Assembly: GCA_001761425.1 (NCBI GenBank)
Contig: CP012986.1
Location: 270,001-302,000, forward strand
Length of the DNA: 32,000 nt
Origin: Candidatus Saccharimonadota bacterium
GTDB lineage: Archaea; Nanohalarchaeota; Nanosalinia; Nanosalinales; Nanosalinaceae
Reading direction: 5' to 3'
Positions 1 to 32,000 of this stretch are shown here, in pieces; the stretch's first letter is position 1, and each line of letters begins with the position of its first letter. Below the pieces are notes generated by a model. The model searched no databases. It was given only the letters and a program-made list of their open reading frames with translations, and was not told where the DNA came from. A program made the position numbers and the translations under genes.

Positions 1-1
1 A

Positions 2-1186
2 GGTACAGCAGATGTAGATCAGGCAGTAGAGCTTACTGGAGGTTCTGACTTCAGCTTCGATACCAACCAGGCTGGAGAGACAGTAATCGAGACAAGAACT
101 CTACAGAGCAACGCAGATGTCTCTACACAGATCGGATTCGAGACAACCTGTAATGGCACTACTGAAACTACAAACCCTGCGGACTTCAGCGGAGATTGTA
201 AAGGAATCGACACACGGTACGTCGAGTACTTTGACGATGCAGGACATGAATTTAGTGATTATAGTCATCAATCAGGAACTCCAGTAACCTCTGACCTTCA
301 AACTGCAATTAACAAAGCATCGTCAGGAGACGTCCTAGTTGTAGAAGAAAATGGAGGCTACAATAATGTAACAGTCAACAAGTCTATAACTATTGTAGCT
401 AAGAATCAGGGAGGTCCAACTGTTGATGGATTCGACATTAGTGCCAGTGACGTAACTGTCAAAGGTTTCAACATCACCGATGGATTTGAGGCCCAAAACT
501 CTGGAAACTTTGTAGGAGTCAGAGTAAACAATGACGGCGACAATGCCGTTATTACCCACAACCACATCCACGGTATCAGTGGTTCTGGAGCGACGAAGGG
601 AGTTCAGGTATTCCGGGGCGACGCAGCAGTTAGAAATAACCACATTGAAGGAATTGAATCGACAGGAAGTGGTGCTTATGGGGTACTGGTTCAGCACGAC
701 TCAAAAGATGCGACTGTGTCTCAGAACACTGTTGAAGGAGTAAACGGTGTCTGGGCTTTCGGAGTTGATATTGATGATGCAGCGACAGGTGACGGAACGA
801 CTGGATCGCCAAGCAATGCGTTGGTAGAGTACAACCACATTGACACAGTTACAGGGGATAGTTACCTTGGAACTGCAGTAGGTGTAGAAGCTGCAGCTTC
901 ACCGGTCGATGTTCAAAACAACATCATGCTGACCGCAAGTGACATAGAGAGCAAGAACGATGTCACTGTGAACGCTAGCAACAACTGGTTTGGAACCGAC
1001 GGCATCAATCTAGATCAACAGGATTCAAGCACCATAGATGCCTCATGGGCTGACGCAGACACAACAGTTGAAGCTAACTCTGATGACAAGTTCGGTATTG
1101 TCAACGAGTTCGCTATCAATCTCAAGCCTGACACTTACAGCTTGACTACAAGCATCACTGCAGCAGGAGCTGAAGAAACGCCTTAA
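2..1186 (+). CDS. Cell-surface/secreted protein with right-handed parallel beta-helix (PbH1/NosD-like) repeats; 5' end lies outside the window
   Basis: Frame 2 is open from nt 2 to TAA at 1184-1186. The ORF track only lists the part after internal Met 716. My translation reads GTADVDQAVELTGG...TAINKASSGDVLVVEENGGYNNVTVNKSITIVAKN...VITHNHIHGISGSGATKGVQVF..VRNNHIEGIES..VSQNTVEGVNGVWAFGV..VEYNHIDTV..VQNNIML. This shows the ~22-aa N-x-I/V-x-G periodicity typical of pectate-lyase-like beta-helix surface proteins. The protein is acidic and Thr/Asn-rich. Confidence 0.7.
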   Translation, partial: GTADVDQAVELTGGSDFSFDTNQAGETVIETRTLQSNADVSTQIGFETTCNGTTETTNPADFSGDCKGIDTRYVEYFDDAGHEFSDYSHQSGTPVTSDLQTAINKASSGDVLVVEENGGYNNVTVNKSITIVAKNQGGPTVDGFDISASDVTVKGFNITDGFEAQNSGNFVGVRVNNDGDNAVITHNHIHGISGSGATKGVQVFRGDAAVRNNHIEGIESTGSGAYGVLVQHDSKDATVSQNTVEGVNGVWAFGVDIDDAATGDGTTGSPSNALVEYNHIDTVTGDSYLGTAVGVEAAASPVDVQNNIMLTASDIESKNDVTVNASNNWFGTDGINLDQQDSSTIDASWADADTTVEANSDDKFGIVNEFAINLKPDTYSLTTSITAAGAEETP

Positions 1187-1190
1187 TTTC

Positions 1191-1214
1191 CCTCTCTTTT
1201 TTATTTTTGAGAGG
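1191..1214 (+). terminator. T-rich putative archaeal terminator after the beta-helix gene
   Basis: CCTCTC (1191-1196) and GAGAGG (1209-1214) are inverted repeats flanking ttttttattttt (1197-1208), starting 5 nt after the stop codon. Confidence 0.4.
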
Positions 1215-1219
1215 CTCGG

Positions 1220-1264
1220 CGAACCGCAAGGTTTGACCGGTTTAGAAAACCTGCAAAGGTTTTC
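1220..1264 (+). other. Two tandem small hairpins, both with a GCAA (GNRA-type) tetraloop, in the spacer upstream of the LTD gene
   Basis: The first is CGAACC-GCAA-GGTTTG (1220-1235, one G-U pair). The second is GAAAACCT-GCAA-AGGTTTTC (1245-1264, 8 perfect pairs). Confidence 0.45.
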
Positions 1265-1321
1265 GTGTGAGCGGTGCTGGTGTCTTTGTCCGGTGTTCGA
1301 TTCCCGGAGCCGCTTTCAATC

Positions 1322-1789
1322 ATGAAGTATGCAAAAATCCTGGCAGTTTTCGCAGCACTAGCCCTAGCCGGAGCAGGTTCAGCAACCTTGCTGAATAGTT
1401 TTGGTACGATCAGTGGTACTGCTGATGTTAGGCCTGCTTTGAATATTACGGATGTAGGTAATGTTTCGAATGAGGAGGAGTATGTTAATCTGACTAGTCA
1501 GACTTCTGTTTCGGTTGATATTTCGCATCTAAGTATCGCTGATGAAGGAGGAAGTTATGATGTGTTAAATAATTCTGAGAACAGTGTTGTTGAGTTAGGT
1601 GAGAAGGTTGTAGTTACAGATAATTCTGTCTCGACCTCTGAAGTTGAGTCGTGGTTTGGAACTTCGGTACTGCATCTTACAACTGACGATAGTGCTATAG
1701 GTGCAGGCCTTAATCAGAATGTCGATACTGTTTATCTCAAAATCGATGACACAGTTGTAGATTCTTTCAGTTATGGTGATTCATCATGA
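1322..1789 (+). CDS. Small secreted lamin-tail-domain (LTD)-like protein
   Basis: I prefer the ATG at 1322 (MKYAKILAVFAALALAGAGSA, signal-peptide-like) over the alternative start at 1274 given by the track. EEYVNLTSQTSVSVDISHLSIADEGG ... DTVYLKIDDTVVDSFSYGD matches the LTD pattern (E-[FWY]-V-E-L-x-N...VDLSGW.L.D ... GD.V.L.D..G.VVD.V.Y). The stop TGA (1787-1789) overlaps the next ATG (1786-1788). Confidence 0.6.
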   Translation: MKYAKILAVFAALALAGAGSATLLNSFGTISGTADVRPALNITDVGNVSNEEEYVNLTSQTSVSVDISHLSIADEGGSYDVLNNSENSVVELGEKVVVTDNSVSTSEVESWFGTSVLHLTTDDSAIGAGLNQNVDTVYLKIDDTVVDSFSYGDSS

Positions 1790-3606: not shown

Positions 3607-3610
3607 CGGA

Positions 3611-3916: not shown

Positions 3917-3919
3917 AGT

Positions 3920-4246: not shown

Positions 4247-4249
4247 TAC

Positions 4250-4279: not shown

Positions 4280-4384
4280 GATGCGTTAAAGGTCTTCAGG
4301 CCTTCTTTCGGGTTATCTGGTAAGGCCTTGGTTTCCTGGAGTTTGGGTCCGGAAGTTTTCTTGGGCTTTGTACAGCCTCGTAGG

Positions 4385-4415: not shown

Positions 4416-5414
4416 ATGGTCTTCGGCTGTTCGCAGTGTAATGAATCCTTTGAGAGCAAGACTGAGTTGAAGGACCATATAGATTCTGTGCATAACTCTG
4501 ATGGAGAACCTGAACTGAACCGGGGTCAGGAAAGTGATGAGGATGAGGCCTCTGAAGAAGATGGTTCGGAGGAGAATCCATGGTCGGACTTTAATGATGG
4601 TGGAAGTGGTTCTCAGAGCGGTGGAGAGAATCCGGATATTGGAGCTGGTGAGAGAGATGGATATCTTCGTACGGGTGTTGACGGCCTTGATGAACTGTTT
4701 GATGATGGTATTCGAGAGGAAAATGTTACATTGATCGCAGGTAATCCTGGTTCAGGTAAATCTATTTTCTCGCTTCAGATCCTGGATCATGCGGCTTCGA
4801 ACGGTGAGAAATGTCTTTACATGAGCTTTGAGGAGTCTCCGGATGCTCTTGTAAGCCACATGGAGGATTTTGGCTGGGATGCCGATGAGCATATCGATAA
4901 CGGTAATCTTGTTATTGAAACGTATGATCCATTTAATGTCTCCCGTACGGTGGAGGCCTTGTTCAGAAAACAGAGTGGGGAGCTTGAGATAGATACTAAA
5001 CCTTTGATCTTCGGTGATATGGACCAGGAGGAGGATGAATTTGACCGTGTGGTGGTTGACTCGCTTTCAGCTATCTCTGCGGGTTTCGGAGCTGATTCCA
5101 AGAACTACAGGCTGTATATAAGAGAACTGTTCAATCTTTTCAGGGAGATCGGTGTCACCGCTTTCGTGATCGCCGAGTCCCAGACCATACCTGATAAGAT
5201 CACTGAATCAGGCCAGGCAGAGTTCCTGGCGGACGGCGTGGTCCTGATGTACAAGCAGATGTCTTCCAGAGGAATACAGATCTACAAGATGCGTGGATCT
5301 AATTTTGAGGAGAAGATAGCGCCGATGACCATCGAAGGTGGGGTAGGCCTCAACGTAAGGCCTGACGACAAATTCTTTGGAAGCGGAAATGACAGCAGTG
5401 GCGGAATGTTTTAG
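4416..5414 (+). CDS. C2H2 zinc-finger fused to a KaiC/RecA-superfamily ATPase (COG0467-like)
   Basis: The N-terminus CSQCNESFESKTELKDHIDSVH has a C-x2-C-x12-H-x4-H pattern. An acidic linker follows, then GVDGLDELFDDGI..NVTLIAGNPGSGKSIF (Walker A at 4740-4763), CLYMSFEES, and a Walker-B-like RVVVDSLSAI. Confidence 0.75.
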   Translation: MVFGCSQCNESFESKTELKDHIDSVHNSDGEPELNRGQESDEDEASEEDGSEENPWSDFNDGGSGSQSGGENPDIGAGERDGYLRTGVDGLDELFDDGIREENVTLIAGNPGSGKSIFSLQILDHAASNGEKCLYMSFEESPDALVSHMEDFGWDADEHIDNGNLVIETYDPFNVSRTVEALFRKQSGELEIDTKPLIFGDMDQEEDEFDRVVVDSLSAISAGFGADSKNYRLYIRELFNLFREIGVTAFVIAESQTIPDKITESGQAEFLADGVVLMYKQMSSRGIQIYKMRGSNFEEKIAPMTIEGGVGLNVRPDDKFFGSGNDSSGGMF

Positions 5415-6737: not shown

Positions 6738-9700
6738 TCACCTGAAAGGTATCCTGCTTGATTTATGCCTTGATTTTGCCTCTTTTTCCGCAAGCCTGGA
6801 CTCTATCGTGGACAGCTTCTCCGTCAGCTCCTCTACCTTGGTCTCGTACATTCCTGTGTCGGCGATATCGCCTTTAACGTAATCTTCCTGGGTGTCCCGG
6901 ATGATATCTTTCAGTTTGTCTCTCTGCTGTCTCAGTGAGTCTTCCTCTCTGAAGTTTGTGATGTTGGCCTTCTTGCTCTCCAGCTTGGTTCTCTCCTCGA
7001 TAAGTTGTATCAAGTCCTCGTTGTAGTCCTCGGCAGCGTCTTCATACTCATTTATCGACATATCACCCTGTTCGAAGGCCTCCTTCTGGTCCTGTTTCTT
7101 CATTTCGTGGATGCTATTTTCCTCCTGATCGATCTCTTCCAGCCGTGATTCAATCCTGTAAAGCCTGTACCTGTAGTAGGCTATTATTCCTGTAACAGAG
7201 GCCAGTAAGAGGCCTAGAAGGATTTTCTTCCAGTTTGAGGCAATCAGGTAGATATAGTTGACTTCTCCCTTTGTTTCCAGCTGGTAGAGGTTCCGGGCCT
7301 CTTCAAGCCTGTTCATCGAAGTGTCGTACGCTCCTCTTTCAAGTGCCTCTTCAGCCAGGTTGGCCATTCTTTTGGCCTGTGTTACGTCAAGGCCTTGCAT
7401 TTCAGCGGAATCTATCTGTTTTCCGAGTTCTTCGAGGCCTTCCTGTGTATCTGTGGCTGTCTCGTAGATGTTCTCTGCTTTTTCGTATCTGTCCTGGACT
7501 GTTCCGTATTCGCCTTCCTGGATGTCTTCTTCGGCGTCGGACAGGATTTTTTCGATTTCTGTGTCGGGTATTCCTGAGCTGTTGAGCTTCTTTTTGAGGC
7601 CCTTCATCTCTTCAGTCAGGTTCTGCGCTGCAGTCTCCGATATTTCGTGTATTTCAAGGCCTACCTGTTTGTTCAATGTGAAGTCGAAGTACGGGTTTAT
7701 GAAGGCTTCTGGATCGTAACCGGTGCCTGAAATCTGGAAGTCTATGTCAAAGCTGCTTGAGGCGAAGAAGTCTGGTGCGGTAATCTCTACAGAGATATTT
7801 TCTGAATCATTTACTTCAAGGGAATCTATGTATTCTTTCTTGAGGTCCAGGTACTGTGAGCGGAAGCCTGAGGCCTCTACAGTTATATTGGAGAGATTGA
7901 ACTCTGTGGGGTTTGTGAATACCACGCTGAAGTTTTGATCCTGTCCTCTTACAAGTTCAAAGTTTTTTGTGGTGTTGAAGATCCTGTCGGAGGCCTCTGA
8001 TACCTGCTCCTGGTTTGTCTGTCCGTCTGATGGAGTTGTTATGGCTCCTCCGCTGTCTTCTTCTATTATGGTTGTTGTCCTGTTTTCTGATACTTCTATC
8101 TGGAATGTCTGGATGAATGATCTATTCCCGGTCGATGTTGTGATGTTAATGTTTTTCGTACCGGTTGATGCGTCTTCTGGGACATTGATGGATACTGAGG
8201 AATCTGTTTTTTCGTCGACGCTGATGTTTTCAAGGTTCTGGGTTTTTGGCTTTGAGGTGCTTGAGAGGCTCCATTCGGAAGGTAGGCTGTAGTCTATTTC
8301 TGTACTTTCTGATTTCTCTGTCCCGATGTTTGTAGTATCTACGGGCAGTTCGACGTTGTCTGCTCCCTGGTTTATTGAGAGAGGGAAGCCGTCTCCTTTC
8401 TCAATGGAGAAGAAGGCAGCATCCAGTGTGAAGGTTGCCTGGCCTTCTATTCCTTCGCTTTCTGGGCTTGAGGTCTCGTTGTACGGTTCCATCTTTATCT
8501 GGAAGGAGTAAATTCCTTCATTATCTGCACTGGTGTCTTCGAGGTATGCTTCAATATCTAGGGCTTCTGATTCCTGTGCTGGAACGGTAAGGTTAGTCCT
8601 GTCTGTCTGCAATTCCAGGTTCGGGTCTTCAACTTTTGTGATACTGTATTTAAGAGGGAAATCTCCCGTGTTTTCTATCTTTGTAGGGGTATAGTCGATG
8701 AGGTTGTTTTCAAGCGTGCTGGAACCCGAGTATTCTGCTGGGGTTCTGCTCCAGGTGTAGTCCCAGCTGATGTTAACTGACTTTTTCTTGCTTATCTCGT
8801 TTCCGTAGGTGTCATTTGCCTCGTATTTGAATTCATAGGTCTCTCCGTCATCTCCAGGTGTGAAGTTTCCTGTATAAAGATCTCCAGAGCTGGTCAGGTC
8901 TCCCTGTTTCCATTTTCCTCCTTTCTTTCTGTAGAGAAGTGATACATTGTCTAACTCAAGGTTATCTGTAATGGTTGCGTTGACCTGAATCGATTTGTTG
9001 GGGTCCAGGTCCTTCTGTGTCTCTGGCGTGTGGTTAAATCCTGTGATATTTGGTTTTTCGATGTCCTCTACATCGAATGATATCCTGGAACTACCTGGAT
9101 TGTTGAGATGATCAGAAACCTGGAAACTGCATTTTCTGTTCCCTGCCTTCAGTTCTGAGGCCTCTATAGTCCTGTTGGCCCAGCCAGAGCTGAATTCCTG
9201 TTTACTGATGCTTGTGTTCTCCTCTGTAGAGTTGTCATAGATTTCAGCGTCTCCCAGTTCAAAGTTGTCGCTCCACTTTGAGTAGCATTTCACTGACTGA
9301 TTCTGGAGCGGAGCTGTCCTGGTAGAGTTTAAAACTTCTATTTGAGGGCCTTTAACCGGTACAGGAGCTTTTGAGTCTGCCAGTACATTGCTTCTGTCCG
9401 AAGTTGTGGTTGTCAATTTTTTTCCGTCGAACCTGTCTGTGGCAGTCACTTTCCAGGAAAGATTGGAGCTTTTCAGGCCTTTGATTGTTTCCTGTGGCTG
9501 TGTGAGGCGTGTGGACGTGTTTATTTTCTGTGTCTCGTTGAATATTTCTAGTTTGTATTCGAGGTTGTCGTTTTCGGGATCTGAGGCCTCCCATTTGAAT
9601 GTGATTTCTGTTTTGTTGGTCTTTGAGTTGTTTTCTGGTGCTTTCAGGTTTTCGATTGAAGGTTTGTTGTTTGGAATTTTGCCTGTTTTGGTGTTTGATG

Positions 9701-12700
9701 TTACCTGTGCTTTGTCTGTGTCGTTGAATGTGAATGTGGTGTTGACTTTTTCTTCGGGCTTTAGCCAGGTGGTTTTTGATGCGTTTACGGTGTAGGAGCA
9801 TTTGGCTTTTTTGGATCCTGTGTATGTGGTGTCTATCTTCTTTTCTACTGTTTTGTTGTTGTTTCCGTGCTGTATAAGTGCTTCGCAGTTGTTTTTGAGG
9901 TCTTTTTCTCCGTTTGGGTCCTGGGTTACTGTTGATACTGTGTATGCGTGTTCTCCAGTGATGTTTTCTATTTCCTGTCTTTTTGCTATCTCTGGCGGCG
10001 AGTTCTGGATTGGAAGTGTTTCTGGTGATTTGTTTTCTTGGCTGAGTGTGTTGTACTCGTCTACTATCTGTAGTGAAAGATTCCAGTGCTGGCCTTTTTC
10101 AGTATCTGCTGGTGTTACGGTGTCTGAAGTTATTGTGCTGGAGTTTGACTTCCATTCGTAGAAGCTGTTTGTGATTTGATCTTCTTCAGGATCCTGGACG
10201 GTGTAGCTCACGTTGAGTGTGTCTTCTGTGGTCGGTTGGTCTGGTTTGAGGTTTATTGAGGTTATTACTGGTGCTCTATTGGGTATGGTGTTTGATACTG
10301 TGCTTGAGTATGCTTTAAGGCCTTGTTCGTCTCTGGCAATTATCTGGACTGAAACTGTTTCTCCTACCTCGAATCCGTTTGTACTGGAGTTTATGTTTGA
10401 GTAGTTCGCCCAGGCGTATTCGTCTCCATCTTCACTGAAATTTTCTGTGTATCTAGTTGTGTTCTCCCCGTCATCTGCTATCACTGTGTAGTTGTCGAGG
10501 TCGCTGTCTCCGTTGAGATCTCTTATCTTTGCTGAGATGTTGAATCCGTGTTCGTTTTTCAGATTGCTGGTTTCTGTTCCTCTGGTGATCTCAGGGTCGG
10601 CGTTGCCGACTTTGAACTGGTCTGTCAGGGTAGAGTTCTCGAAGCTGTCGCTCGCTTTGAATGTCCAGTTGTAGGTTTCCAGTGATTTTCCGTAGAACGC
10701 AGATGAGTTCCATGTCTCTCCTGAGGTTGAATCTATTTTCTCATCGACAATTTTCTGAGGTGAGCTCTGGTTCCACACTTCGTAGAATGTGGCAGCGAGC
10801 GGATTGTCCGTTGCTGTGACGTTTGCTATCAGTTTGATCCATTCTGCTTCCTCACTTACTGATTCATTGATCTCTACAGATTCTATCCTTGGCTCCTGGT
10901 TCATGTGGAATGAGGCATTAGTATCTCTGCCGGTACAGCCCCAGTTATCACAGGCGAGAAGGTCTATTACGTAGTCCTCGTTGTCCTGAAGGTTGACGTT
11001 GTTCCCTCCGATTTCAAGTTCATCCGGCTGCGTATAATCTGTTGAGCTGATCTCTGTTCTGTTCTCCACGGTGAGAGGGTTTTGACTTGTTCCCAGGTAG
11101 GCCTTGACTGTGAGGTTATCACCATCTTTGTCGGAGGGATTAGTCCAGTTTATGTCGAATGTGTGGTTGACTACGTAGTTCTGGTTTCCGACCTCGAGAT
11201 CAAGGTTCTGAGGAAGTTCAGGTACATGGTTTGGAATCGAGTTCTCTGTGGAAGAACTTGCGGAGGCTCCGGATTTGTCTATCGCTTCCGCGTCAATGCT
11301 GAGTGTTTCCTCGACTTCGAAGCTTTTGAAGTAAGTCGAGTTTATGTTCGAGTAGTTCAGTGCTGCTTCGTCCTCTCCTCCGAAGCTGCGGTTTACTGAG
11401 GCCTTGATTTCTTCCTGGTTTCCGTCTCCGTCGCTTACTGTTATGTTGAAGTGTTCTATATTGATTGCTCCGTCAGCGTCAGTTGCTTTGGCGGAGATGT
11501 TGAACTTGTGTCCTTTATCGTAGTTAGCTGTGCTCAGGCCTGTTATTTCCGGTTGCTGGTTATTGACTGTTACTGTCCCTGTGGTGCTTGTTGGCTGGTA
11601 TCCATCGCTCACATTTACCGTGTAGTTGTAGGTGGTTTCTGCCTTTGTCTCCCACTTATCGGAGTTCCAGAGGCCTTTGTTTAGTGATCCGTTTGTGTTG
11701 CTGTAGATCTGTGTTCCTGCGGTCTGGTTGTAGACTGTGAAGTTTACCCATTCAATACTGTCCTGACTGTCCGTTATATTGGCCTCCAGATTCAGACTGT
11801 CTGAGCCGGTTATCGAGGAACTATTGGTTTCCACACTTTCTATGAAAGGCTCTTGGTTCATGGTGAATTCGATGTTGTCGGTATATCCGCTGCATCCATA
11901 CGGGTCACAGGCCTTTAATGTGACGTTGTATGTGTCACCGTCCAGTATCTCGACGTTCTGGCCTAGTGTTAGTTTGTTGTCTTGTGTTGTGGTGTCGTCT
12001 AGTTCCTGAGGGTTTGGCGAGGTTTCTGTGTAGGCTTTGACTGTTATCCGGTCTTGTTCGGGGTCTGTGGGTGTTGTCCAGTTTATTTCTGGTGTGTGGT
12101 CTATTACGTGGTTTAGATCAGCTTTTTCCTGGAGGAAGTGCGTCATGTTAGGTGTTTTCGGTTTACCTGGTACTTCGTTGGGTATGGTGTATGACCTTGT
12201 TGGAGTCTCTGCTGTGGCGCCTGCGTCGTCTCTTGCCGTTATTGTTGTCTCTATGTCGTCTCCTACGCTGAAATTTTCTATCGAGGTGTTTACGTTCGAG
12301 TACGTTATTGAGGCCTCGGTGCTGTCTCCGAATTCTGTATCTGTGATGCTTTCCTCAACTGTCTCCTGGTTTCCGTCTCTGTCTTCAAGTACCAGTGTGT
12401 AGTCTAGGAGGTCTCCGTCTCCATCATCGTCTTTTACAACTGCTGATACATTGAAAGCGTGTTTTCCAGTAATGTCGTCAAAACTTGGGCCTGATACTAT
12501 CTCAGGGTTTGAGTTATTTGTTTTGAAAGTTCCTGAGGTCTCTGAGGTCTCATAACTATCAGTTGTGTTTACAGTCCAGTTGTAGGTGGTTCCTGTGGAT
12601 ACTTTCCATGTATCTGAGATCCAGTTGCCGTTCTGGTTTATCGAACCGTTCACAGAGTCTACCAGTACGTCGTTGTCACTCTGGTTGTATGCTGTGAAGT

Positions 12701-19506: not shown

Positions 19507-19513
19507 GGTCTGT

Positions 19514-21411: not shown

Positions 21412-21514
21412 AAGAAGTTTTCCCCTCTAGAAAGATTTTGAGCCAGATAGTTTTATTCTTGACCCCTCCGAGTTCACCAGTAGGTTAAAACCTGCTGCAC
21501 AACAATTTCAATCC

Positions 21515-22246: not shown

Positions 22247-22328
22247 AAACAAGTTTATAAATAACTTTCGCTTGAATGTTACCTAAAGGTGGTCAAAGAT
22301 TTCAGGTTCGGATTCTCTTTTAGCTGGA

Positions 22329-23093
22329 TTGTTCCACCATGATATCGCCTCTACTATTACCTTGATGGATTCTGCTCTGGAAGATGAGGACTATGATCTT
22401 TTAGGGTTATGGGATCTTCCGGAAGACGAAAGAAGAGAGGTCAGAAATGCTTACAGCACCCTTGAAAGAGTCTATGAAGGCCTTGAACAGGGGACGCATC
22501 TGCAAGAGTTCTCTGAGGAATTCGAGGAGCTTGCAGGGTACCGTGAAAGATTTGCGGGTGATGTAGGAGACCAGTTCGAGGAGGTAGGACAGCTAAGTGA
22601 GTACGTATCTATGTACCTTGATGAGTTCGAGGACTCGGCTGAGAATGAGATGGAGCTCGGTCATATGATGATGCCTTTGGAAAAGCTGGGTGCGGAAATA
22701 CAGTATAACGGGAACCAGGAGTCAAAAGTAAGAGGAGATCCAGGCCTGTGTCTTGTCACAAATACTGTAGCAGAGAACGCGGAGAAATACGGCGGAGATG
22801 AACAGGATTACAGGCTCTGGGCAGATATAGAGGAACTTTCTGAAGGCTACGAGATCGAGATATGGGATAACGGCCCGGGAATACCTGAAGACATTGACGG
22901 AGAAAAATTGTTCCAGAAAGGAGTAGGAAAAGGAACAGGAGAAGGCCTTCACTACGCCTCGGAAATAGTAGATCTTTTCGGAGGAGAGATAGAGCATCCA
23001 GACTATCTACAGGAAAGAGAAGGCGGATACGGCCTCAGAATCCAGCTACAGAAATCTAGTGAGGCCTCCGAAGAATTAGTACCTCACACCTGA
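22329..23093 (+). CDS. Soluble minimal histidine-kinase-like protein (H-box plus HATPase_c), with no sensor domain
   Basis: FHHDIASTI (H-box-like) sits at the extreme N-terminus. N-box AENAEKYG, G1 box IWDNGPGIP, G2 box GTGEGL. TTG start per the track; the frame is open only from 22287. The 3' end overlaps convergent glyA by 18 nt. Confidence 0.6.
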   Translation: MFHHDIASTITLMDSALEDEDYDLLGLWDLPEDERREVRNAYSTLERVYEGLEQGTHLQEFSEEFEELAGYRERFAGDVGDQFEEVGQLSEYVSMYLDEFEDSAENEMELGHMMMPLEKLGAEIQYNGNQESKVRGDPGLCLVTNTVAENAEKYGGDEQDYRLWADIEELSEGYEIEIWDNGPGIPEDIDGEKLFQKGVGKGTGEGLHYASEIVDLFGGEIEHPDYLQEREGGYGLRIQLQKSSEASEELVPHT

Positions 23094-24338
23094 ATTCTCG
23101 TAAAGCTCAAACTCTTCAAGAAGCTCCGAGACATTTTCATGGACTTCATCCTTCAAGGCCTCGTCCTCAGGACTGTTCACAACCTTTCCGATCATCTCGC
23201 CAATCTTTTCAAGCATATCCTCTTCCATACCTCTTGTAGTTAAAGCTGGAGTGCCGATCCTGATACCGGAGGTGATACGGGGCGATTCCGGATCGTGAGG
23301 CACCATATTTTTGTTAACGATAATATTCACGTCTTCGAGGGCTTCCTCAGCTTCTTTACCGGTTACTTCTTCCTCACGAAGGTCTACCAGGACGAGATGG
23401 TTGTCCGTTCCGCCTGACACCATTTTAAGGTCTTCTCTTCTAAGGCCTTCCGCCAACGCCTTCGTGTTTTTCTTTATCTGTTTCGCGTAATCCTTGAACT
23501 CGGGTTTCATGGCTTCTCTGAAACACACTGCCTTTCCCGCGATCTGATGCATTAGTGGGCCTCCCTGAGAGAATGGGAACAGGGCTTTGTCCACCTGATC
23601 GCCGTACTCTTCTTTGCAGAGGATCATGCCTCCTCTCGCACCTCTGATGGATTTGTGCGTGGTTGTTGTAACTATATCACATTCTGGGAACGGTGAGGGA
23701 TGTTCTCCTGCTGCGACAAGGCCTGAAATATGTGCTATGTCACACATCAGGATGGCGTCTGCCTCGTTCGCTGCTTCCCTGAACGCTGAGAAGTTTATCT
23801 TCCTTGGATAGGCTGAGTAACCGCAGACGATTAGATCTGGGTCGTGTTCCTTTGCTGCTTTGATTATATCCTCTTTCTCGAACCTCTCTGTCTCCTCGTT
23901 TATACTGTATGTATCGAAGTCGAAAAGCTCGCCGGAGAAGTTAACGTGATGTCCATGTGTCAGGTGTCCGCCGTGGCTAAGTACAGGTCCAAGGATTTTA
24001 TCCCCGGCTTCCAGAACCGAAAAGTAGGCTGCAAAGTTTGCCTGGCTTCCCGAGTGAGGCTGGACATTCACATGGTAGGCACCGAAGATTTCCCTTGCCC
24101 TATCACGTGCCAGATCCTCTATCTCATCGTGGTATTTACAACCTGCGTAGTACCTCTTACCAGGATATCCTTCCGCGTACTTGTTCGTCAAGATACTTCC
24201 CTGCGCCTGTAGAATCTGCTTTGGCACAAAGTTCTCCGATGCTATCATCTCGAGGCCTTCCTTTTCCTGCCTCTCCATCTCATTTTCAAGTGCTTCATGA
24301 ACTTCCGGGTCTGCCTCAGAAAGATCTCGGTGCTCCAT
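23076..24338 (-). CDS. glyA: Serine hydroxymethyltransferase
   Basis: LEMIASENF..ILTNKYAEGYPGKRYYAGC..VNVQPHSGSQAN..GGHLTHG..VTTTTHKSIRGARGG (PLP-lysine motif). Confidence 0.92.
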   Translation of the reverse strand: MEHRDLSEADPEVHEALENEMERQEKEGLEMIASENFVPKQILQAQGSILTNKYAEGYPGKRYYAGCKYHDEIEDLARDRAREIFGAYHVNVQPHSGSQANFAAYFSVLEAGDKILGPVLSHGGHLTHGHHVNFSGELFDFDTYSINEETERFEKEDIIKAAKEHDPDLIVCGYSAYPRKINFSAFREAANEADAILMCDIAHISGLVAAGEHPSPFPECDIVTTTTHKSIRGARGGMILCKEEYGDQVDKALFPFSQGGPLMHQIAGKAVCFREAMKPEFKDYAKQIKKNTKALAEGLRREDLKMVSGGTDNHLVLVDLREEEVTGKEAEEALEDVNIIVNKNMVPHDPESPRITSGIRIGTPALTTRGMEEDMLEKIGEMIGKVVNSPEDEALKDEVHENVSELLEEFELYENSGVRY

Positions 24339-25982: not shown

Positions 25983-26627
25983 CTATTCCTCTGCCAGCAT
26001 TCTGACGATGATCTGCAGTATCTCGACGAACACACCCATGTAGGCGATGTAGATTCCGATACCGTTCATTACTACCCGTCCAGGCCTCTGTTTCATCCTC
26101 CAGATCTCGTATACCAGATATACTATGAAACCTATCAGGACCAGGATGAATGTCAGAAGCATCAGTGGAGGGAAAAAGCTGCCGACAAGGCCTGAGCCTA
26201 GAGCAGCCATGAACAGGTAATTCGAGTATTTGCCCCACGATCTGAAGCTCCTGCCGGTCAAGTAGACTAGGAGTGTTGCTCCGACTGCGACAGCTGTCGT
26301 GATGACTGCTGTGAGGCCTAGAGCCAGTGGGAAAAGATTCGCTGGTAAAAGGGCGAGGATACCTCCGCCGAAGACTCCGTAAGTTATCTGCAGGAGGCCT
26401 GTTCCTGCTGTTGCGAGGCCTGTATTATCTTTTTTTATCCCTTTTTTGGCGAGCCATCTTCCGCCGGTTAGGCCTGCTCCGAAGATGACCATGCCGATGA
26501 TAGGTACGCTGAAAAGCAGGTTTGTTATTTTTGAGAGAGGTGTTACTGCGATGACTGCCATCAGTGCGACGTTGATCAGTATGAGGCCTGTGCTTAGGCC
26601 TATGCTTTTGAGTTCGTCGGAGTTCAT
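25983..26627 (-). CDS. Multi-pass (about 7 TM) membrane protein, Bax-inhibitor-1/YccA-like
   Basis: 214 aa, glycine-rich TM helices, size and topology as in BI-1/YccA. The assignment rests on overall pattern only. Confidence 0.4.
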   Translation of the reverse strand: MNSDELKSIGLSTGLILINVALMAVIAVTPLSKITNLLFSVPIIGMVIFGAGLTGGRWLAKKGIKKDNTGLATAGTGLLQITYGVFGGGILALLPANLFPLALGLTAVITTAVAVGATLLVYLTGRSFRSWGKYSNYLFMAALGSGLVGSFFPPLMLLTFILVLIGFIVYLVYEIWRMKQRPGRVVMNGIGIYIAYMGVFVEILQIIVRMLAEE

Positions 26628-27443: not shown

Positions 27444-27478
27444 CTGTCCAGAGAGTTCGAAAAATCAAATTCAAGGCC

Positions 27479-27529
27479 TTTTTTCAGGATGCCTCAGGAT
27501 TTCTGGTTTTTGCGTCTGGTTCTTTTTTT
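27479..27529 (+). terminator. Series of T-tracts after tmk (putative archaeal terminator region)
   Basis: T-runs occur at about 27479-27484, 27506-27511 and 27521-27529 within the 105-nt spacer. Confidence 0.35.
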
Positions 27530-27548
27530 AGGGTTTAACTAAAGTATT

Positions 27549-28220
27549 TTGGATTGGAAAACATTGTTTATGCTGGATCAGAGAGAAGTGGAGGAATTGA
27601 AGGCCTTGATCCGGGAGGAGTTTTCGGATTACTATGAGCTTGCCGGTGGGAAAAACTACAGGTATCATCACCTGGTCAGAACTCACAGGTATGTGAAGAA
27701 GATGATGAGAAGGGAAGAGCTTGAAGGCCTTAAGATTGATGAAGAAGTTCTGGAGGTCTCGGCACTTTTCCATGACCTAGGGAGAAAAGAGGATATTGAG
27801 GAAGGTTTCCTGAACCCTATGGAAGGGGAGAACAGTGAGCATGCGGAGAGAGGAGCCGAGATGGTTTCAGATTACATCGATGATTTTCTGGAAGATGACA
27901 AGGTTGAAAGAGTTGAGAAAGTTATCTCCAACCATCACAGAGAGGCAGAGACTGTTGAGGGAGAGATACTGCAGGACTGTGACGCGCTCTCAAACTTCGG
28001 AGTCAATAATCTCTGGAGGATGATACATTACTCTGCTGACAGGGAAAGAACTGTAGATGAAAGCATAGAGTATTTCTGGGATGAGGCCTTGAACGCTTAC
28101 AGGAAGAAACTGAAGGATTTCAATCTTGATGTATCGAAGAGGATAGCCAGGAAGAGAATAGTCAGACATCAGGAAGCGGTCATCCAGATGGATCAGGAGC
28201 TTCACGCTGAAGACATCTGA
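27549..28220 (+). CDS. HD-domain metal-dependent phosphohydrolase
   Basis: H..V (HHLVRTHRYV), ALFHDLGR (the HD motif), EHAERGA, NHH, DCD. The track start is a TTG at 27549. The ATG at 27570 lies about 30-35 nt downstream of a TATA-like TTTAACTAAAG and may be the real, leaderless start. Confidence 0.75.
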   Translation: MDWKTLFMLDQREVEELKALIREEFSDYYELAGGKNYRYHHLVRTHRYVKKMMRREELEGLKIDEEVLEVSALFHDLGRKEDIEEGFLNPMEGENSEHAERGAEMVSDYIDDFLEDDKVERVEKVISNHHREAETVEGEILQDCDALSNFGVNNLWRMIHYSADRERTVDESIEYFWDEALNAYRKKLKDFNLDVSKRIARKRIVRHQEAVIQMDQELHAEDI

Positions 28221-28256
28221 AAACACTTTTTAACCCGTTAAAACAAAGGAAAGTTT

Positions 28257-28958
28257 ATGGACCCCAGAAAAGCCCAGAAATTTGAGAGACACAGGAAAGA
28301 ACTCAGGAAAAAAGCCTTCCTCAACATAACAATCGTCATACTTGTAGCTACAGGCCTTGCATTCTACATAGGAGGATTTACAGCAGATTTCCTGTACATC
28401 TTTCTCTCCACAAACATCGCTGTCTGGTTCTCCACAGTCTTTGTCGCAGCACTGATATTTATCTGGAGCCTCCCGCTTCTACATTACCGTGAAGAGGCGA
28501 AGATGAAATCCGAAAAAGCCAAGGAGCACTTCCTGGACATGGAACCGGAGAAATCGCCTATAGTACAGGTAATGGAGGAAAGAGGATGGGAAAAGATCGA
28601 ATCAGATGAGAACGAAGTCAGACTGGAGACATACCCGACACTGTTCCACAGAATCCTCAAAAAGAAGGCCTCACTCCATCTCGAAGAAGAGGAAAGAGGA
28701 CAGGACCACGAGGTTACAGTACTGAAAACGGGAGGAAAAGAAGTCTCAAGGATAAAGACTGAATACGAGGAAACCGATGAAGGCCTTGAAATTACAGAAA
28801 CCACTGTTTCAAGAACCCGTGTATCACCGATCTACGTCGAGGTAACACTTTATCTTATGCCTGAGATTGAGGAATTGACGGAAGAAGCAGCGAACGAGGA
28901 GATAGAGATAATCGATGAAGATATAGATTACAGTATAAACCACTACGAGTTCGAGTAA
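28257..28958 (+). CDS. Hypothetical membrane protein (N-terminal TM helices, acidic C-terminal domain)
   Basis: 233-aa ORF. A TATA-like CTTTTTAAC is centred about 27 nt upstream of the ATG. No family recognised. Confidence 0.55.
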   Translation: MDPRKAQKFERHRKELRKKAFLNITIVILVATGLAFYIGGFTADFLYIFLSTNIAVWFSTVFVAALIFIWSLPLLHYREEAKMKSEKAKEHFLDMEPEKSPIVQVMEERGWEKIESDENEVRLETYPTLFHRILKKKASLHLEEEERGQDHEVTVLKTGGKEVSRIKTEYEETDEGLEITETTVSRTRVSPIYVEVTLYLMPEIEELTEEAANEEIEIIDEDIDYSINHYEFE

Positions 28959-28988
28959 AGAAGAAAAGAGGAGGTTAATATGTTTTTC

Positions 28989-29192
28989 TCAGTCGAGGCC
29001 GCGTTCTCTGGAGGCTTTCATGCTCAGAGGTATGTACTGGGCTATGAACGAGGAAATCAGTATCGTCAGGAAGAAACCTGTCTCTGAATTGATCGCTGGA
29101 AGGCCCATCACCAGTCTGTGCAGTATATAGACTGCTGTTACAGCTACAGCTCCTAAGAAGCTTATCTCGCCCGGACTCATCGAATTTTCCAT
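28989..29192 (-). CDS. Small 2-TM membrane protein (hypothetical)
   Basis: I prefer the start at MENSMSPGE (29192), which has AGGTGA 5 nt upstream. Two hydrophobic helices. Convergent with the previous gene. Confidence 0.4.
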   Translation of the reverse strand: MENSMSPGEISFLGAVAVTAVYILHRLVMGLPAINSETGFFLTILISSFIAQYIPLSMKASRERGLD

Positions 29193-29388
29193 AACTATCA
29201 CCTGACAAGAAATTGTTGACTACTTCATAACTTCTTTATTACATTTTTCCATAATTTTCCAGGATGAACTGGTCCGCCTGGTTAAAAACATGTGAAGGCC
29301 TGTAAGATTATCTATTGATGCAATAATGTGGTTTCCAGAAGCAATTCTTTTGGTTCAGAGCCTGTAAATACGTATACAGTGATTAAAA

Positions 29389-30345
29389 ATGAATTACAAG
29401 TTCATGATGACGGCGGTATTCGCTATAGCAGTGACTGCAGGCATCCTGACAAATACTCAGGGAGTGGCTGCCCAAGGCCTTGAGGACGATTTTTTCACGG
29501 GAAGTTTCTATAACGACAGCTTCTTCGATGAGTCTTCTGATGACAGTTTCTTCGAAGACTCGTTTTTCGGAGATGACCCGTTCTTCAGCGATGAAGATGA
29601 TTCAGCTGGAGATGATACAGGTAACCAGAGCGAGTCCGGGTGTGAACCTGGAGAAGTCCATATACCTGAGGATCAGGACTGTGATGGCGAGATAGATGAC
29701 AGGTTCCGAGGCAATGATACGGAACAGGATCCTGAAAACGGTTCGAACAACGAGACAGAAAATACTACCGAGGTAGAGGAAAGACATGTCACCCCTGCTC
29801 CAGAACCTTCCGCAACAGGTGAAGACTGGATCAGCTACCCTAACCCAAGAGACCATTACAAACATGACCAGGGTATACACAGAGAGGGATCGATCAAAGT
29901 ATGCAAAGTACTCCTCAACCAGAACAGCGAACCGATAACAGGGAAATCTATACCCGGAACCACGTTCACTGTCGATACGAACATCACATACGAAGACGGA
30001 AGACCTGTAACATTTACAACAGAGCTTGACCAGGTCGCAGACCTGATAGGAACAAGCCCAGACCTCATAGAAGGAGATGGATACCTCGATGCAGAATGCG
30101 CAGAGTTCCACGACCTTGAGCTAAACCAGACATACACCTACAGCCAGGAAACAATCACGGGAGAACACTCCGACCGAGTTAAAACTGTAGGATACGAAGA
30201 ATACTGGGAAAGAGGCCAGCCACAGCCATACACCGAGGCCAACAGCTACGGAGAAAAAAACGAATCCGACGGAAGAATCCATCTTACGCCAGGCGATGAC
30301 AACCGCCACGCAGAAATCATAATTATAAACCAGATAACAGGATAG
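29389..30345 (+). CDS. Secreted protein: signal peptide, acidic [DES]-x-F-F repeat region, C-terminal prealbumin/Cna-B-like beta-sandwich
   Basis: MNYKFMMTAVFAIAVTAGILTNTQGVAAQ, then DDFFTGSFYNDSFFDESSDDSFFEDSFFGDDPFFSDEDD. The C-terminal SIKVCKVLLNQNSEPITGKSIPGTTFTV....HAEIIIINQ resembles SpaA/SdrD-B-type domains, with low certainty. Confidence 0.6.
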   Translation: MNYKFMMTAVFAIAVTAGILTNTQGVAAQGLEDDFFTGSFYNDSFFDESSDDSFFEDSFFGDDPFFSDEDDSAGDDTGNQSESGCEPGEVHIPEDQDCDGEIDDRFRGNDTEQDPENGSNNETENTTEVEERHVTPAPEPSATGEDWISYPNPRDHYKHDQGIHREGSIKVCKVLLNQNSEPITGKSIPGTTFTVDTNITYEDGRPVTFTTELDQVADLIGTSPDLIEGDGYLDAECAEFHDLELNQTYTYSQETITGEHSDRVKTVGYEEYWERGQPQPYTEANSYGEKNESDGRIHLTPGDDNRHAEIIIINQITG

Positions 30346-30359
30346 ACAAAGGCCTTCCA

Positions 30360-30385
30360 TTTACCTTTTTTCCTTTCTTTTTACT
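30360..30385 (+). terminator. T-rich putative terminator after the secreted-protein gene
   Basis: ccttttttcctttcttttt begins 15-20 nt after the stop codon. Confidence 0.4.
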
Positions 30386-30402
30386 CGCAATTGAAGGAAA
30401 AA

Positions 30403-30424
30403 TGGCAGGGCAGGGATTTGAACT
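30403..30424 (-). repeat. Degenerate direct copy of the 3' end of the adjacent tRNA gene (acceptor 3' strand, T-stem 3' strand and T-loop)
   Basis: tggcagggcagggatttgaact (30403-30424) matches tggcggggccgagatttgaact (30467-30488) at 19 of 22 positions in the same orientation. It does not fold into a complete T-arm, and no 5' half is adjacent. Confidence 0.6.
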
Positions 30425-30428
30425 ACCC

Positions 30429-30448
30429 GAAAATCTCTGGAGATTTTC
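30429..30448. other. Hairpin/palindrome GAAAATCT-CTGG-AGATTTTC between the tRNA and its 3'-end duplicate
   Basis: 8 perfect pairs. The stem is identical to hairpin 1245-1264 except for one compensated pair (C-G becomes T-A). Confidence 0.5.
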
Positions 30449-30466
30449 TAAAAAACGTATAAATCT

Positions 30467-30539
30467 TGGCGGGGCCGAGATTTGAACTCGGGTCCGTACC
30501 GCCCCGGGGTACGATGATAGTCCACTACACTACCCCGCC
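30467..30539 (-). tRNA. tRNA-Pro (anticodon GGG by manual folding); no encoded CCA, no intron
   Basis: Reverse complement: GGCGGGG-TA-GTGT-AGTGGACTA-TCAT-C-GTACC-CCGGGGC-GGTAC-GGAC-CCGAG-TTCAAAT-CTCGG-CCCCGCC-A. It has a 7-bp acceptor stem, a 5-bp anticodon stem, a 5-bp T-stem with a TTCAAAT loop, G18G19 in the D-loop, and discriminator A. The anticodon is at 30503-30505 (ccc on the plus strand). Position 33 reads C. Confidence 0.8.
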
Positions 30540-30649
30540 GAACTTAGATGATAAGTTCGAGCAATCGAAGCCATGCTATGCATCGCTTTCAGGAATACCC
30601 TACAGACGAGGCCTTTGTCGTGAGAAATTTTAAATCTGAACTTGGGGGA

Positions 30650-32000
30650 TCAGTCCCTGATCTCGGATTTTCCCGGCGGTAAAGCTCTGATAATGTAGTC
30701 CAGTTCGAGTTCCCTGTTTAAACGGGACTGAATTGTCTTCGCCAGATCCGACTTCTTTTCGTGTCCAGGCCTTAGAGATAGGTAGTTACCGCAGTGTTTC
30801 TTCACTGCGGATTCAGGTCCGCACATCGGAACTTTGTGATCCTCTATCTCGTAGACTCCGATAGAGGCCTCGACTGACATATTTCTCATGTAGGTTCTGT
30901 CCCCCCGGATTACGAAGGCGCCTTTCTGCAGGTACTCTCCTGACTCGGCCTCTTCGGTGACCTGTTCTGGGTCGACATAGTAGACGTCATCAGCGCCTAT
31001 GCCAGCCTTCCAGGTCTTTGCGAACGTGACAGCAGCCTTCGCAGCCTCCTCTCGCGTCGCCTCTCCACATTCCTGACCTTCCTTGACTACGACACTGGGC
31101 GCGCCGTCAAAGTCTGCGTGGAAGTAGAGATCGTTCTTCTCCATGTGTTTGTTGACCAGCATATCGTTGGTCTGAGCATCTCTACCGGCAAGAACCAGGT
31201 AGCCTTCGGAGGACTTGAACCAGCGGTATTTCTCGTACCATTCTTTTTCACGTTTCTCGGTCTTATCCTCCATCACTTCCTCAAGCTCTATATCCTCCTT
31301 CTTCAATTCCTCAAGCTCTTTTTCCGTCTCTTTCAAGGCCTCTTCGACTGAGTCAATCTTTGACTCGGAGTTCTTCGCCTTATCGTAGTACCGGGAAGCT
31401 ATAGCCTCCAGATCCTCGTCCAAAGTAAGTTTTATCTTCATCCCGTCAACTGAGACAGAGATAAACTCGTCCTGCTCATTCAGGGAATTAATGCGGTCCG
31501 TCATAGGCCTTTCTGACTCTTCAAGCATCTCCTCGGTCTCCTTCCAGCCGTGTTTCTCAACTCCTTTACTTGCTGCTTCCTGGATCTCCTCCAGAATCTG
31601 ATAGTTCTCATAGACCAGTTCGGCCTTTTCACGGTTCTGCTCCGCGGACTTTTTTAGGCCTTTCTTCTTCCGCTTCTGCTGTTCTAGTTTTCTTTCAATA
31701 CCTTCCTTTCTTTCTTTATAGGCCTTTTTCTTCTGTCTCTCCTCTTTCCTCTGCTCTTTTCTGTAGAAAAACTCGTCTAAGGCCTCTGAGAATTTTTCGA
31801 ATTCTTCGCTGTTGTATTTGTCGTAGGTCTGTAACGGGAACGGTGTCGCGCGCTCCATTCTTTCCCCGTCCTTGTAGAGGATTGGTTCTGGCTTGTCTGC
31901 TGATTCAAAGATTTTTCTGATCTCCTCTTCTGTCCTTTCTTTTTCTTCTCCGCTGAGACTTGAAATCTCCGTGTTTTTCTCGATCTCTGCCCGGGCGCAG
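30650..32000 (-). CDS. NFACT / RqcH (FbpA-like, DUF814-containing) ribosome-quality-control protein; 5' end lies outside the window
   Basis: The frame stays open upstream of the track's Met (31858) to the window edge (..ARAEIEKNTEISSLSGEEKERTEEEIRKIFESADKPEPILYKDGERMERATPF..). A coiled-coil middle region is followed by WFKSSEGYLVLAGRDAQTNDMLVNKHMEKNDLYFHADFDGAPSVVVK, the NFACT-R/DUF814 signature. Confidence 0.8.
   Translation of the reverse strand, partial: CARAEIEKNTEISSLSGEEKERTEEEIRKIFESADKPEPILYKDGERMERATPFPLQTYDKYNSEEFEKFSEALDEFFYRKEQRKEERQKKKAYKERKEGIERKLEQQKRKKKGLKKSAEQNREKAELVYENYQILEEIQEAASKGVEKHGWKETEEMLEESERPMTDRINSLNEQDEFISVSVDGMKIKLTLDEDLEAIASRYYDKAKNSESKIDSVEEALKETEKELEELKKEDIELEEVMEDKTEKREKEWYEKYRWFKSSEGYLVLAGRDAQTNDMLVNKHMEKNDLYFHADFDGAPSVVVKEGQECGEATREEAAKAAVTFAKTWKAGIGADDVYYVDPEQVTEEAESGEYLQKGAFVIRGDRTYMRNMSVEASIGVYEIEDHKVPMCGPESAVKKHCGNYLSLRPGHEKKSDLAKTIQSRLNRELELDYIIRALPPGKSEIRD

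Follow-up and report, generated by a model that had tools for sequence, protein, structure and literature searches.

Why does one palindromic hexamer, AGGCCT, recur approximately once every 258 bp across 32 kb of archaeal DNA? The stretch in question, hereafter the window (the whole 32,000 nucleotides that were analysed), belongs to Nanohaloarchaea archaeon SG9 (Candidatus Nanopetramus SG9, DPANN): its SHMT protein is identical to that of SG9 and it corresponds to approximately 269-301 kb of the SG9 JGI contig Ga0136257_100001 (1,125,078 bp). SG9 was assembled from Atacama halite nodules, and the paper describing its genome mentions neither motifs, palindromes, methylation nor restriction (bioRxiv 10.1101/029934). 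A preliminary description of the window, made by eye from its letters, had put the number of AGGCCT sites at about 124, the zero-order expectation at 6-8 per 32 kb and the over-representation at 15-20-fold, and all three estimates are borne out. There are exactly 124 copies, each at the position originally assigned to it, the first at 1430 and the last at 31780, which makes AGGCCT the most frequent of all hexamers in the window, whereas 6.4 copies are expected from base composition and 100 dinucleotide-preserving shuffles gave 7.15 ± 2.66 (maximum 14). The observed/expected ratio (O/E) is 18.5 and 17.4 with Markov models of order 0 and 1, and falls to 7.0, 2.1 and 1.05 at orders 2, 3 and 4. 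The preliminary description had held that a Markov-corrected ratio near 1 would reduce the enrichment to a compositional effect. Formally this value is reached at maximal order, but it is an artefact because AGGCCT dominates its own sub-words, accounting for 124 of the 136 copies of AGGCC, 124/152 of GGCCT and 124/176 of GGCC. Since 70-91% of the sub-words come from the motif itself, we rejected the maximal-order correction as circular; when the motif copies are masked, Markov models of orders 0-4 each predict 5.7-7.7 copies. The runner-up palindromic hexamer in the window is enriched only 2.0-fold, the remaining fifteen NGGCCN words are present in 0-11 copies each and the 18 one-mismatch neighbours of AGGCCT in 2-21 copies each. 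Amongst 77 unrelated control loci of similar size, the best palindromic hexamers with more than about 10 copies reach approximately 3-7-fold, the higher ratios shown by some control palindromes being based on 1-10 copies only. The enrichment extends beyond the window: a sample of 60,466 contiguous SG9 bases (contig 260748-321213, approximately 5% of the genome) contains 231 evenly spread AGGCCT sites, corresponding to 3.8 per kb and an O/E of 18.7.

The signal resides at the level of DNA. Using 25 gene models to divide the window into coding and spacer sequences, we assigned 116 sites to genes and 8 to spacers, which gives 3.8 sites per kb of coding DNA and 4.5 per kb of non-coding DNA. The spacer sites comprise those at 18917 and 18967 (18917..18972), directly upstream of the start codon of the gene encoding the giant surface protein SPEARE 2, and those at 27474, 29296, 30350 and 30609 (27474..30614), all six of which had been noted previously, together with two more at 4298 and 4323 (4298..4328) in the divergent intergenic region 4246-4416. 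Coding sites are found in all three codon phases, 13 in phase 0 (AGG-CCT), 39 in phase 1 (xAG-GCC-Txx) and 64 in phase 2 (xxA-GGC-CTx), and a single gene on the plus strand (4416..5414), which encodes a KaiC-like ATPase with an N-terminal C2H2 zinc finger, carries phase 1 sites at 4546 and 4954, a phase 2 site at 5345 and a phase 0 site at 5358, exactly as first described. Synonymous-codon shuffles, in which proteins and codon usage were kept, gave 1.4, 4.6 and 7.5 copies in phases 0, 1 and 2, respectively, and a total of 13.5 ± 3.6 (maximum 24), as compared with the 116 observed. AGGCCT is therefore 8.5-9.0-fold above the shuffles in every phase, and the confinement to one codon phase that would have favoured a codon effect is not seen. 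The flanks of the sites show only a weak preference for a purine at -1 and a pyrimidine at +1, for which codon context could account, and the dipeptides Gly-Leu, Lys-Ala and Arg-Pro are 1.2-1.7-fold over-represented. The original proposal of a signal independent of frame, strand and coding status, as opposed to a codon or dipeptide artefact, thus stands, and the DNA itself is the target of a strong directional force.

This force discriminates sharply between AGGCCT and closely related words. We calculated expectations for one-mismatch neighbours from a motif-masked second-order model of the 60-kb SG9 sample, according to which eight of the nine neighbour pairs occur at 0.74-1.6 times expectation whereas AGGCCT occurs at 16 times expectation. 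The deamination neighbours are amongst these, with 48 copies of AGGTCT/AGACCT (41.9 expected) and 35 of AGGCTT/AAGCCT (34.4 expected). The sole pair clearly above expectation is GGGCCT/AGGCCC (34 versus 11.3, 3.0-fold). Only the exact 6-mer is favoured and all six bases matter. The spacing of sites reveals a further property, in that gaps of less than 50 bp between sites number 11, as compared with 28.8 ± 4.4 expected. Of the sequence contexts able to accommodate the motif (defined below), 22/44 with another site no more than 50 bp away carry it, as compared with 173/219 of the remainder (Fisher P = 2e-4), and occupancy climbs with distance to the nearest other site (0.53, 0.48, 0.69, 0.82, 0.86). 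Neighbouring sites therefore interfere with one another below approximately 100 bp, which may reflect a protein footprint, the lack of added benefit from a second site, or selection against the hairpins that two copies can form.

To determine how widely the trait is distributed, we compared syntenic regions of relatives (approximately 100 kb in all), graded by the identity of their SHMT proteins to that of SG9. AGGCCT is enriched in L083 and L084 (99% identity; O/E 19.7 and 22.0), L085 (93%; 18.8), L086 (92%; 18.6) and L087 (88%; 18.7). These ingroup loci, which derive from mutually independent assemblies (JGI, ENA, Logan and NCBI), contain 4.2-4.7 sites per kb although their GC content spans 46-51%. 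The ratio drops to 2.2 in L088 (83%), and the outgroup loci L089 (82%; 0.3), the cultivated Nanohalobium constans LC1Nh (L099, 80%; 0.8), NHA25 (L005, 79%; 0.4) and L003 (78%; 0) show no enrichment. The comparison of relatives recommended in the preliminary description thus separates O/E values of 18.6-22 from values of 0-0.8. The enrichment is clade-specific, being present in all sampled lineages with at least 88% SHMT identity and in none sampled at 83% or below, except for excesses within single genes. In L088, four of the five AGGCCT sites lie inside one surface-protein gene (L088:7130-10174), which may be of ingroup origin. A second case concerns L004 (Ca. Nanohalobium sp. DAL-WCL_22_75C1R, contig JBDGSL010000044.1), in which AGGCCT is enriched 8.5-fold despite an SHMT identity of 79%. 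We rejected this locus as an intermediate form of the trait, as 20 of its 24 sites are located in a single ingroup-like gene (7506-11387) encoding an intein-containing Hel308-type helicase, with background density elsewhere. The helicase is 83% identical to its SG9 counterpart, whereas the neighbouring genes are 34-79% identical, and nine AGGCCT positions are common to both helicases. This looks like an ingroup-type gene in an outgroup contig, resulting either from horizontal transfer, in which intein homing may have played a part, or from an assembly chimera, and AGGCCT density provides a practical marker of genomic origin and of recent gene transfer between nanohaloarchaeal lineages. The SG9 Hel308-type helicase, encoded just upstream of the window (L090:3920-7798), contains one LAGLIDADG intein, the L089 orthologue (L089:20164-21263) contains two, and several nanohaloarchaeal SMC homologues in the protein database also bear inteins (approximately 1386-1396 aa, versus approximately 845 aa without).

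The tetranucleotide core of the motif behaves differently across the same lineages. GGCC outside AGGCCT occurs at 0.09-0.54 times expectation in the clear outgroups, 0.56-0.71 times in the ingroup and 0.91 times in L004, whilst the O/E for GGCC amounts to 0.11 for NHA25, 0.29 for L003, 0.42 for N. constans and 0.52 for L089. This scarcity suggests widespread GGCC-directed restriction pressure in Nanohaloarchaeota or their hosts. IMG/VR scans with ThyA and ribonucleotide reductase (RNR), in search of viruses of the clade, yielded only matches below 50% identity.

Sites in the clade are conserved well beyond what the divergence of the DNA predicts. At a nucleotide identity of 68-74%, coding sites of SG9 are also AGGCCT in 30/56 cases in L085, 24/45 in L086 and 32/52 in L087, whereas phase-matched background hexamers predict 8-10 shared (53-62% conserved versus 16-19% expected). 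Amongst sites whose amino-acid context is the same in both lineages, 25/29, 19/28 and 27/28, respectively, are retained as compared with about 10 expected, and conservation across four ingroup lineages stands at 28% of site positions versus 2.2% for other words. Synonymous third positions are correspondingly constrained within the motif: the third base of GGC is changed in 15% of cases (61% elsewhere), that of GCC in 26% (64%), AGG in 9% (46%), CCT in 19% (54%) and xxA in 13% (46%). We rejected the idea that slow loss causes the enrichment, as high equilibrium occupancy explains positional conservation equally well and conservation alone does not measure turnover; site conservation thus partly mirrors equilibrium occupancy as opposed to slow turnover. 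The fast-evolving SPEARE 2 proteins of SG9 and L085 share 45% amino-acid identity and their aligned parts carry 13 and 15 sites, of which two positions are shared; density is kept while positions turn over, and sites must therefore be continually created. In the outgroups, AGGCCT is found at none of the orthologous positions of ingroup sites (0/31, 0/20 and 0/14), and the states present instead, for example AGGACT, AGACCA and AGGTTT, differ from the motif by one to four bases, transversions included. In the folate/thymidylate genes at 19021..24338, which encode DHFR, a 266-aa open reading frame (ORF) product, ThyA, a VTT-domain protein, a histidine-kinase-like ATPase and SHMT, AGGCCT sites conserved in the ingroup are replaced in the outgroups by non-motif sequence through synonymous or non-synonymous differences, such as ThyA codons that read AGG-CCT in the ingroup and AGA-CCA or AGA-CCG in outgroups. 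An apparent excess of AGGTCT/AGACCT, which would have indicated a hypermutable inner cytosine and hence 5-methylcytosine at GG(m5C)C, was dropped after normalisation for codon phase and background.

The strength of the force is most readily appreciated from the fraction of opportunities that are used. Peptide contexts permissive for the motif, at which it can be written into the gene with no alteration of the protein, are Arg-Pro, [Lys/Glu/Gln]-Ala-[Phe/Leu/Ser/Tyr/Cys/Trp] and x-Gly-Leu, x being any amino acid that can be specified by a codon ending in A. In the window, AGGCCT occupies 13/15, 38/63 and 64/73 of these contexts, respectively, including all 17 Glu-Gly-Leu contexts. Occupancy in the 60-kb SG9 sample is 74% (195/263) and in the other ingroup lineages 62-72%, as compared with 0-5% in the outgroups (1/63, 2/61, 0/11 and 3/58). 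The corresponding odds ratio, (0.74/0.26)/(0.04/0.96), is approximately 68, which at equilibrium would imply a scaled per-site advantage S of about 4. Moreover, the contexts themselves are more numerous in the clade, each kb of coding sequence containing 4.8-6.9 of them in the ingroup and 3.05-3.4 in the outgroups. When orthologous aligned blocks, which take in the conserved enzymes ThyA, DHFR and SHMT, are compared, SG9 and the outgroup have 38 and 21 permissive contexts, respectively (L089), 26 and 14 (L005), or 20 and 12 (L003), whereas pairs of ingroup lineages are equal (60/63, 62/59 and 65/63). Since SG9 has approximately 1.8-fold more permissive contexts than outgroup orthologues, amino-acid sequences have been altered: orthologous proteins of the SG9 clade are measurably reshaped at the sequence level. 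The contention in the preliminary description that an active directional force is needed is upheld by this excess of contexts, by their occupancy and by the interference between sites.

We consider that the most satisfactory explanation, to which we assign a probability of about one half, is an enzyme, peculiar to the clade, that modifies AGGCCT, with selection, or conversion in the direction of the marked allele, favouring the sites that carry the mark. According to this model, the clade would have gained, after its split from other nanohaloarchaea, a protein with restriction/modification-grade specificity, most likely a putative AGGCCT-specific (StuI-type) cytosine methyltransferase, acting either as an orphan or in a restriction-modification (R-M) pair. 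Each marked site would confer a small advantage, either because the mark itself has a function or because repair or gene conversion favours the marked allele, and the genome would now be at mutation-selection (or drive) equilibrium. A recogniser of the R-M type is proposed because 6/6 discrimination without benefit to one-off words typifies Type II restriction/modification enzymes, and such exactness is atypical of architectural DNA-binding proteins. AGGCCT-specific methylation would also explain how approximately four GGCC-containing sites per kb are tolerated where GGCC is otherwise avoided across the phylum. An R-M system that targets AGGCCT and methylates cytosine on both strands has been documented in bacteria (PMC12128166). 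Several observations nevertheless weigh against the proposed enzyme. Methyltransferase, restriction enzyme and Vsr genes were not seen in the approximately 60 kb of SG9 (about 5% of the genome) and 100 kb of its relatives; Pfam, NCBIfam and PADLOC searches of the window proteins gave no methyltransferase, Vsr or Dam homologue, and tblastn with approximate methyltransferase, Vsr and Dam sequences as queries gave no match in the sampled DNA. Ordinary R-M systems lead to avoidance of their sites, not enrichment. At distances above 100 bp, the sites follow a Poisson-like spacing in which long gaps are not depleted, giving no sign of selection for even coverage, and the G at motif position 2 shows no extra conservation in phase 1 (35% changed versus 32% in the background). 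Finally, the C-to-T and G-to-A changes that are the commonest one-step differences within the ingroup are confounded with codon phase and not specific to methylation. The archaeal REBASE survey does not bear on SG9, as its 'Nanohaloarchaeota' genome is M3_22 (PMC10609329). A bolder extension of the modifying-enzyme model, in which AGGCCT (probably methylated, at about four sites per kb) would be a near-saturating, genome-wide self-mark, powerful enough to have recast the amino-acid sequences of housekeeping enzymes, that evolved recently as a self/non-self or exchange signal in a DPANN ectosymbiont that imports host DNA, is speculative and we think it improbable.

Several of the properties described above would also be expected if AGGCCT were a DNA-uptake or recombination signal, comparable to the DNA uptake sequences (DUS) of Neisseria and the uptake signal sequences (USS) of Pasteurellaceae, with sites spreading by molecular drive without methylation, since these sequences are likewise frame-independent, conserved with turnover and amino-acid-altering. 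Drive that acts on one site per fragment predicts the lower occupancy beside an existing site, and, judging from composition, self DNA with one site per approximately 250 bp could be discriminated by a 6-mer from host or random DNA with about one per 3-5 kb; furthermore, recent preprints tie the cyanobacterial highly iterated palindrome HIP1 to transformation efficiency. However, the uptake sequences described so far have a length of 9-12 nt, lack palindromic symmetry and occur about once per kb, whereas AGGCCT is an exact 6-bp palindrome, and the range of interference (approximately 100 bp or less) is far below that of typical recombination tracts. No uptake receptor or competence gene was found in 60 kb of SG9, and to our knowledge neither is known from nanohaloarchaea. 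An uptake signal is thus a credible but unlikely alternative, as is a dense array of binding sites, kept by selection, for a dimeric protein specific to the clade that would function in the nucleoid, chromatin or segregation. In the latter case the palindrome would suit a dimeric binder, the fall in occupancy within about 50-100 bp of another site matches the size of a nucleoprotein footprint, and Xu et al. favoured a role in chromosome architecture for HIP1. Against this, one-mismatch variants are unenriched, yet architectural proteins usually tolerate degenerate sites; extrapolation of the 60-kb sample to the 1.1-Mb genome gives approximately 4,300 sites, which would require an extremely abundant protein, and no candidate for such a protein was identified.

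The lifestyle proposed for nanohaloarchaea raises another possibility, namely that AGGCCT is a self-mark shielding the ectosymbiont chromosome from its own machinery for degrading host DNA, such as the proposed restriction-like cytoplasmic domains of SPEARE proteins; a role in taking up and degrading host DNA has been suggested for these proteins (PMC6642349). SPEARE 2 shares the window with clustered genes for nucleotide salvage (ThyA, DHFR, SHMT, thymidylate kinase, NUDIX and RNR), and, if denser marks gave better protection, each new site would be favoured. This proposal is wholly inferential, however, and outgroup nanohaloarchaea also have SPEARE-type proteins without the motif. We know of no nuclease sensitive to an AGGCCT mark, and regard such shielding as tenable but improbable. 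The preliminary description had listed, amongst its candidates, very-short-patch (VSP) repair, in which a Vsr-like endonuclease coupled to a cytosine methyltransferase would return the T:G mismatches of AGGTCT and AGGCTT to AGGCCT, a process known for CCWGG in E. coli. Although the prevalence of C-to-T and G-to-A variants within the ingroup accords with this mechanism, the deamination neighbours are not depleted, and gains arise from states two to four mismatches away and via transversions, which T:G repair cannot create. In addition, a simple flux model would cap enrichment by T-to-C changes alone at approximately 3-fold, as compared with the 16-19-fold observed; a context-blind repair bias cannot sense a neighbouring site 50 bp away, and tblastn with an approximate E. 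coli Vsr query found no match in the sampled loci (about 5% of the genome). VSP repair alone is therefore very improbable as the driver. We attach a negligible likelihood to an artefact of composition, codon usage or dipeptide content, for which the maximal-order Markov ratio and the modest excess of Gly-Leu, Lys-Ala and Arg-Pro could be cited, given the shortfall of the synonymous shuffles, the equal enrichment in three phases, the agreement of spacers with genes, the masked Markov predictions of 6-8 copies and the finding that outgroup orthologues with the same peptides make no use of the motif.

Other features of the window provide context for these observations. The stretch without AGGCCT at its left end (1..1429) corresponds to the 3' part of a plus-strand gene (window -136 to 1186) encoding a 440-aa, T/G/V/A/D-rich, beta-helix-like surface protein. 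The motif is missing here because this gene has just two peptide contexts able to encode it, and we therefore rejected foreign origin as the reason for the gap. The zinc-finger ATPase gene at 4416-5414, whose product is KaiC/RadA-like, adjoins a weak KaiC-like ORF (3052-4246) and two small ORFs without family assignment. The minus-strand SPEARE 2 gene (AQV86_02335; 6738..18911) contains 37 AGGCCT sites (3.0 per kb) and has a 4057-aa product designated SPEARE 2 by Hamm et al. (PMC6642349). A very strong compositional asymmetry between 5000 and 21000, where AT skew falls to -0.44 on the plus strand, coincides with this gene, and the SPEARE 2 mRNA is hence markedly A-rich. The densest gene in the window encodes a Bax1-I family membrane protein (25983..26627, minus strand) and contains eight AGGCCT sites (12.4 per kb), five of which are kept in all four ingroup lineages. 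A tRNA-Pro(GGG) gene on the minus strand (30467-30539) is flanked by the spacer sites at 30350 and 30609 and has none within it; it was the only gene returned by the tRNA scan, and Rfam gave no RNA families in the window. Genes of nucleotide metabolism are clustered at 19021-28220 of the window and at 298676-321213 of the SG9 contig (L097), and comprise DHFR, ThyA, SHMT, two NUDIX proteins, thymidylate kinase, HD phosphohydrolase, the large and small RNR subunits and dCTP deaminase/dUTPase, a concentration that fits a nucleotide-scavenging symbiont.

The significance of the motif lies in the contrast that the SG9 clade affords. In cyanobacteria, what highly iterated palindromes (HIPs) do and how they originated has been under debate for approximately 30 years, and comparison is weak there because the trait is ancient and almost universal. 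Here, a phenomenon of this kind is encountered in an archaeon with a very small genome, the phylogenetic limits of the trait are sharp and a cultivated species is amongst those that do not have it. Since sister lineages are without the motif, the causal gene or genes should be findable by presence/absence comparison, and the contrast of ingroup and outgroup allows the force to be quantified, in terms of 74% occupancy and approximately 1.8-fold more permissive contexts. It also shows that motif drive at the level of DNA can measurably reshape protein sequences. If the self-mark interpretation were true, AGGCCT would be an independently evolved archaeal equivalent of HIP1 or of uptake sequences. 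Comparing the SG9 clade with its near relatives could show how highly iterated palindromes arise.

Comparison with known systems places AGGCCT closest to these palindromes. We found no earlier report of AGGCCT enrichment, or of such enrichment in nanohaloarchaea, in the literature searched, which left many subscription journals outside it. The GATC sites of Dam and MutH in Gammaproteobacteria are likewise palindromic, of the methylation type and spread over the chromosome at about one per 250 bp, but a 4-mer reaches this density by chance whereas the 6-mer AGGCCT had to be driven there, and we know of no MutH-like or methyl-directed repair in nanohaloarchaea. The CCWGG sites of Dcm and Vsr in E. 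coli are also palindromic targets of the cytosine-methylation type whose abundance can be raised by repair bias; there, however, the effect is small and accompanied by depletion of T-variants, as distinct from 16-19-fold enrichment with T-variants at expectation and gains by transversion. DUS and USS share with AGGCCT their hyper-abundance, intragenic location in all frames, conservation with turnover, alteration of peptides and possible molecular drive, and differ in their length (9-12 nt), lack of palindromic symmetry, density (about 1 per kb) and known competence receptor. StuI-type R-M systems (AGG^CCT; A. borkumensis SK2 methylates AgGCcT) recognise the same sequence with 6/6 exactness, but their targets are normally avoided or near expectation, as in the approximately 3.1-Mb, 55% GC genome of A. 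borkumensis with about 0.5 AGGCCT per kb (approximately twice expectation), whereas SG9 carries 3.8 per kb, 19 times expectation. The whole A. borkumensis genome contains 1674 AGGCCT sites (PMC12128166).

The likeness to HIPs is more extensive. HIP1 (GCGATCGC) is 15-300-fold over-represented and conserved beyond codon and amino-acid constraints, alternate HIPs are found as GGCGCC in Calothrix PCC 7103 and GGGATCCC in Synechococcus JA strains, and an octamer that contains AGGCCT, CAGGCCTG, is over-represented in Synechococcus PCC 6312 (PMC5861425). AGGCCT in SG9 is similarly a short GC-rich palindrome enriched at least 15-fold (O/E 18.7 in 60.5 kb, approximately 5% of the genome), occupies every frame within genes as well as spacers without explanation by codon or peptide usage, is conserved between genomes beyond codon and amino-acid constraint (53-62% versus 16-19%), and is lineage-specific, related lineages having no motif or a different palindrome; it also forms the core of the PCC 6312 octamer CAGGCCTG. 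Alternate HIPs are reported to co-occur with a methyltransferase of matching specificity. For HIP1 itself, the cyanobacteria in which it is frequent are almost the same as those that encode methyltransferases specific for the HIP1-internal sequences GATC and CGATCG (PMC4390886), and a chromosomal periodicity of 10-90 kb has been described (Xu et al. 2018). The two motifs differ in that AGGCCT is an archaeal 6-mer in a 1.1-Mb DPANN symbiont genome whereas HIP1 is an 8-mer, in density (approximately 4 per kb versus 0.3-2.7 per kb) and in the treatment of one-mismatch variants, which are not enriched for AGGCCT whereas the HIP1* variants are conserved. Near-saturated contexts, protein reshaping and short-range interference were not found described for HIP1 in the literature consulted. 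Judged by these sequence properties, AGGCCT in the SG9 clade is an archaeal equivalent of the highly iterated palindromes of cyanobacteria.

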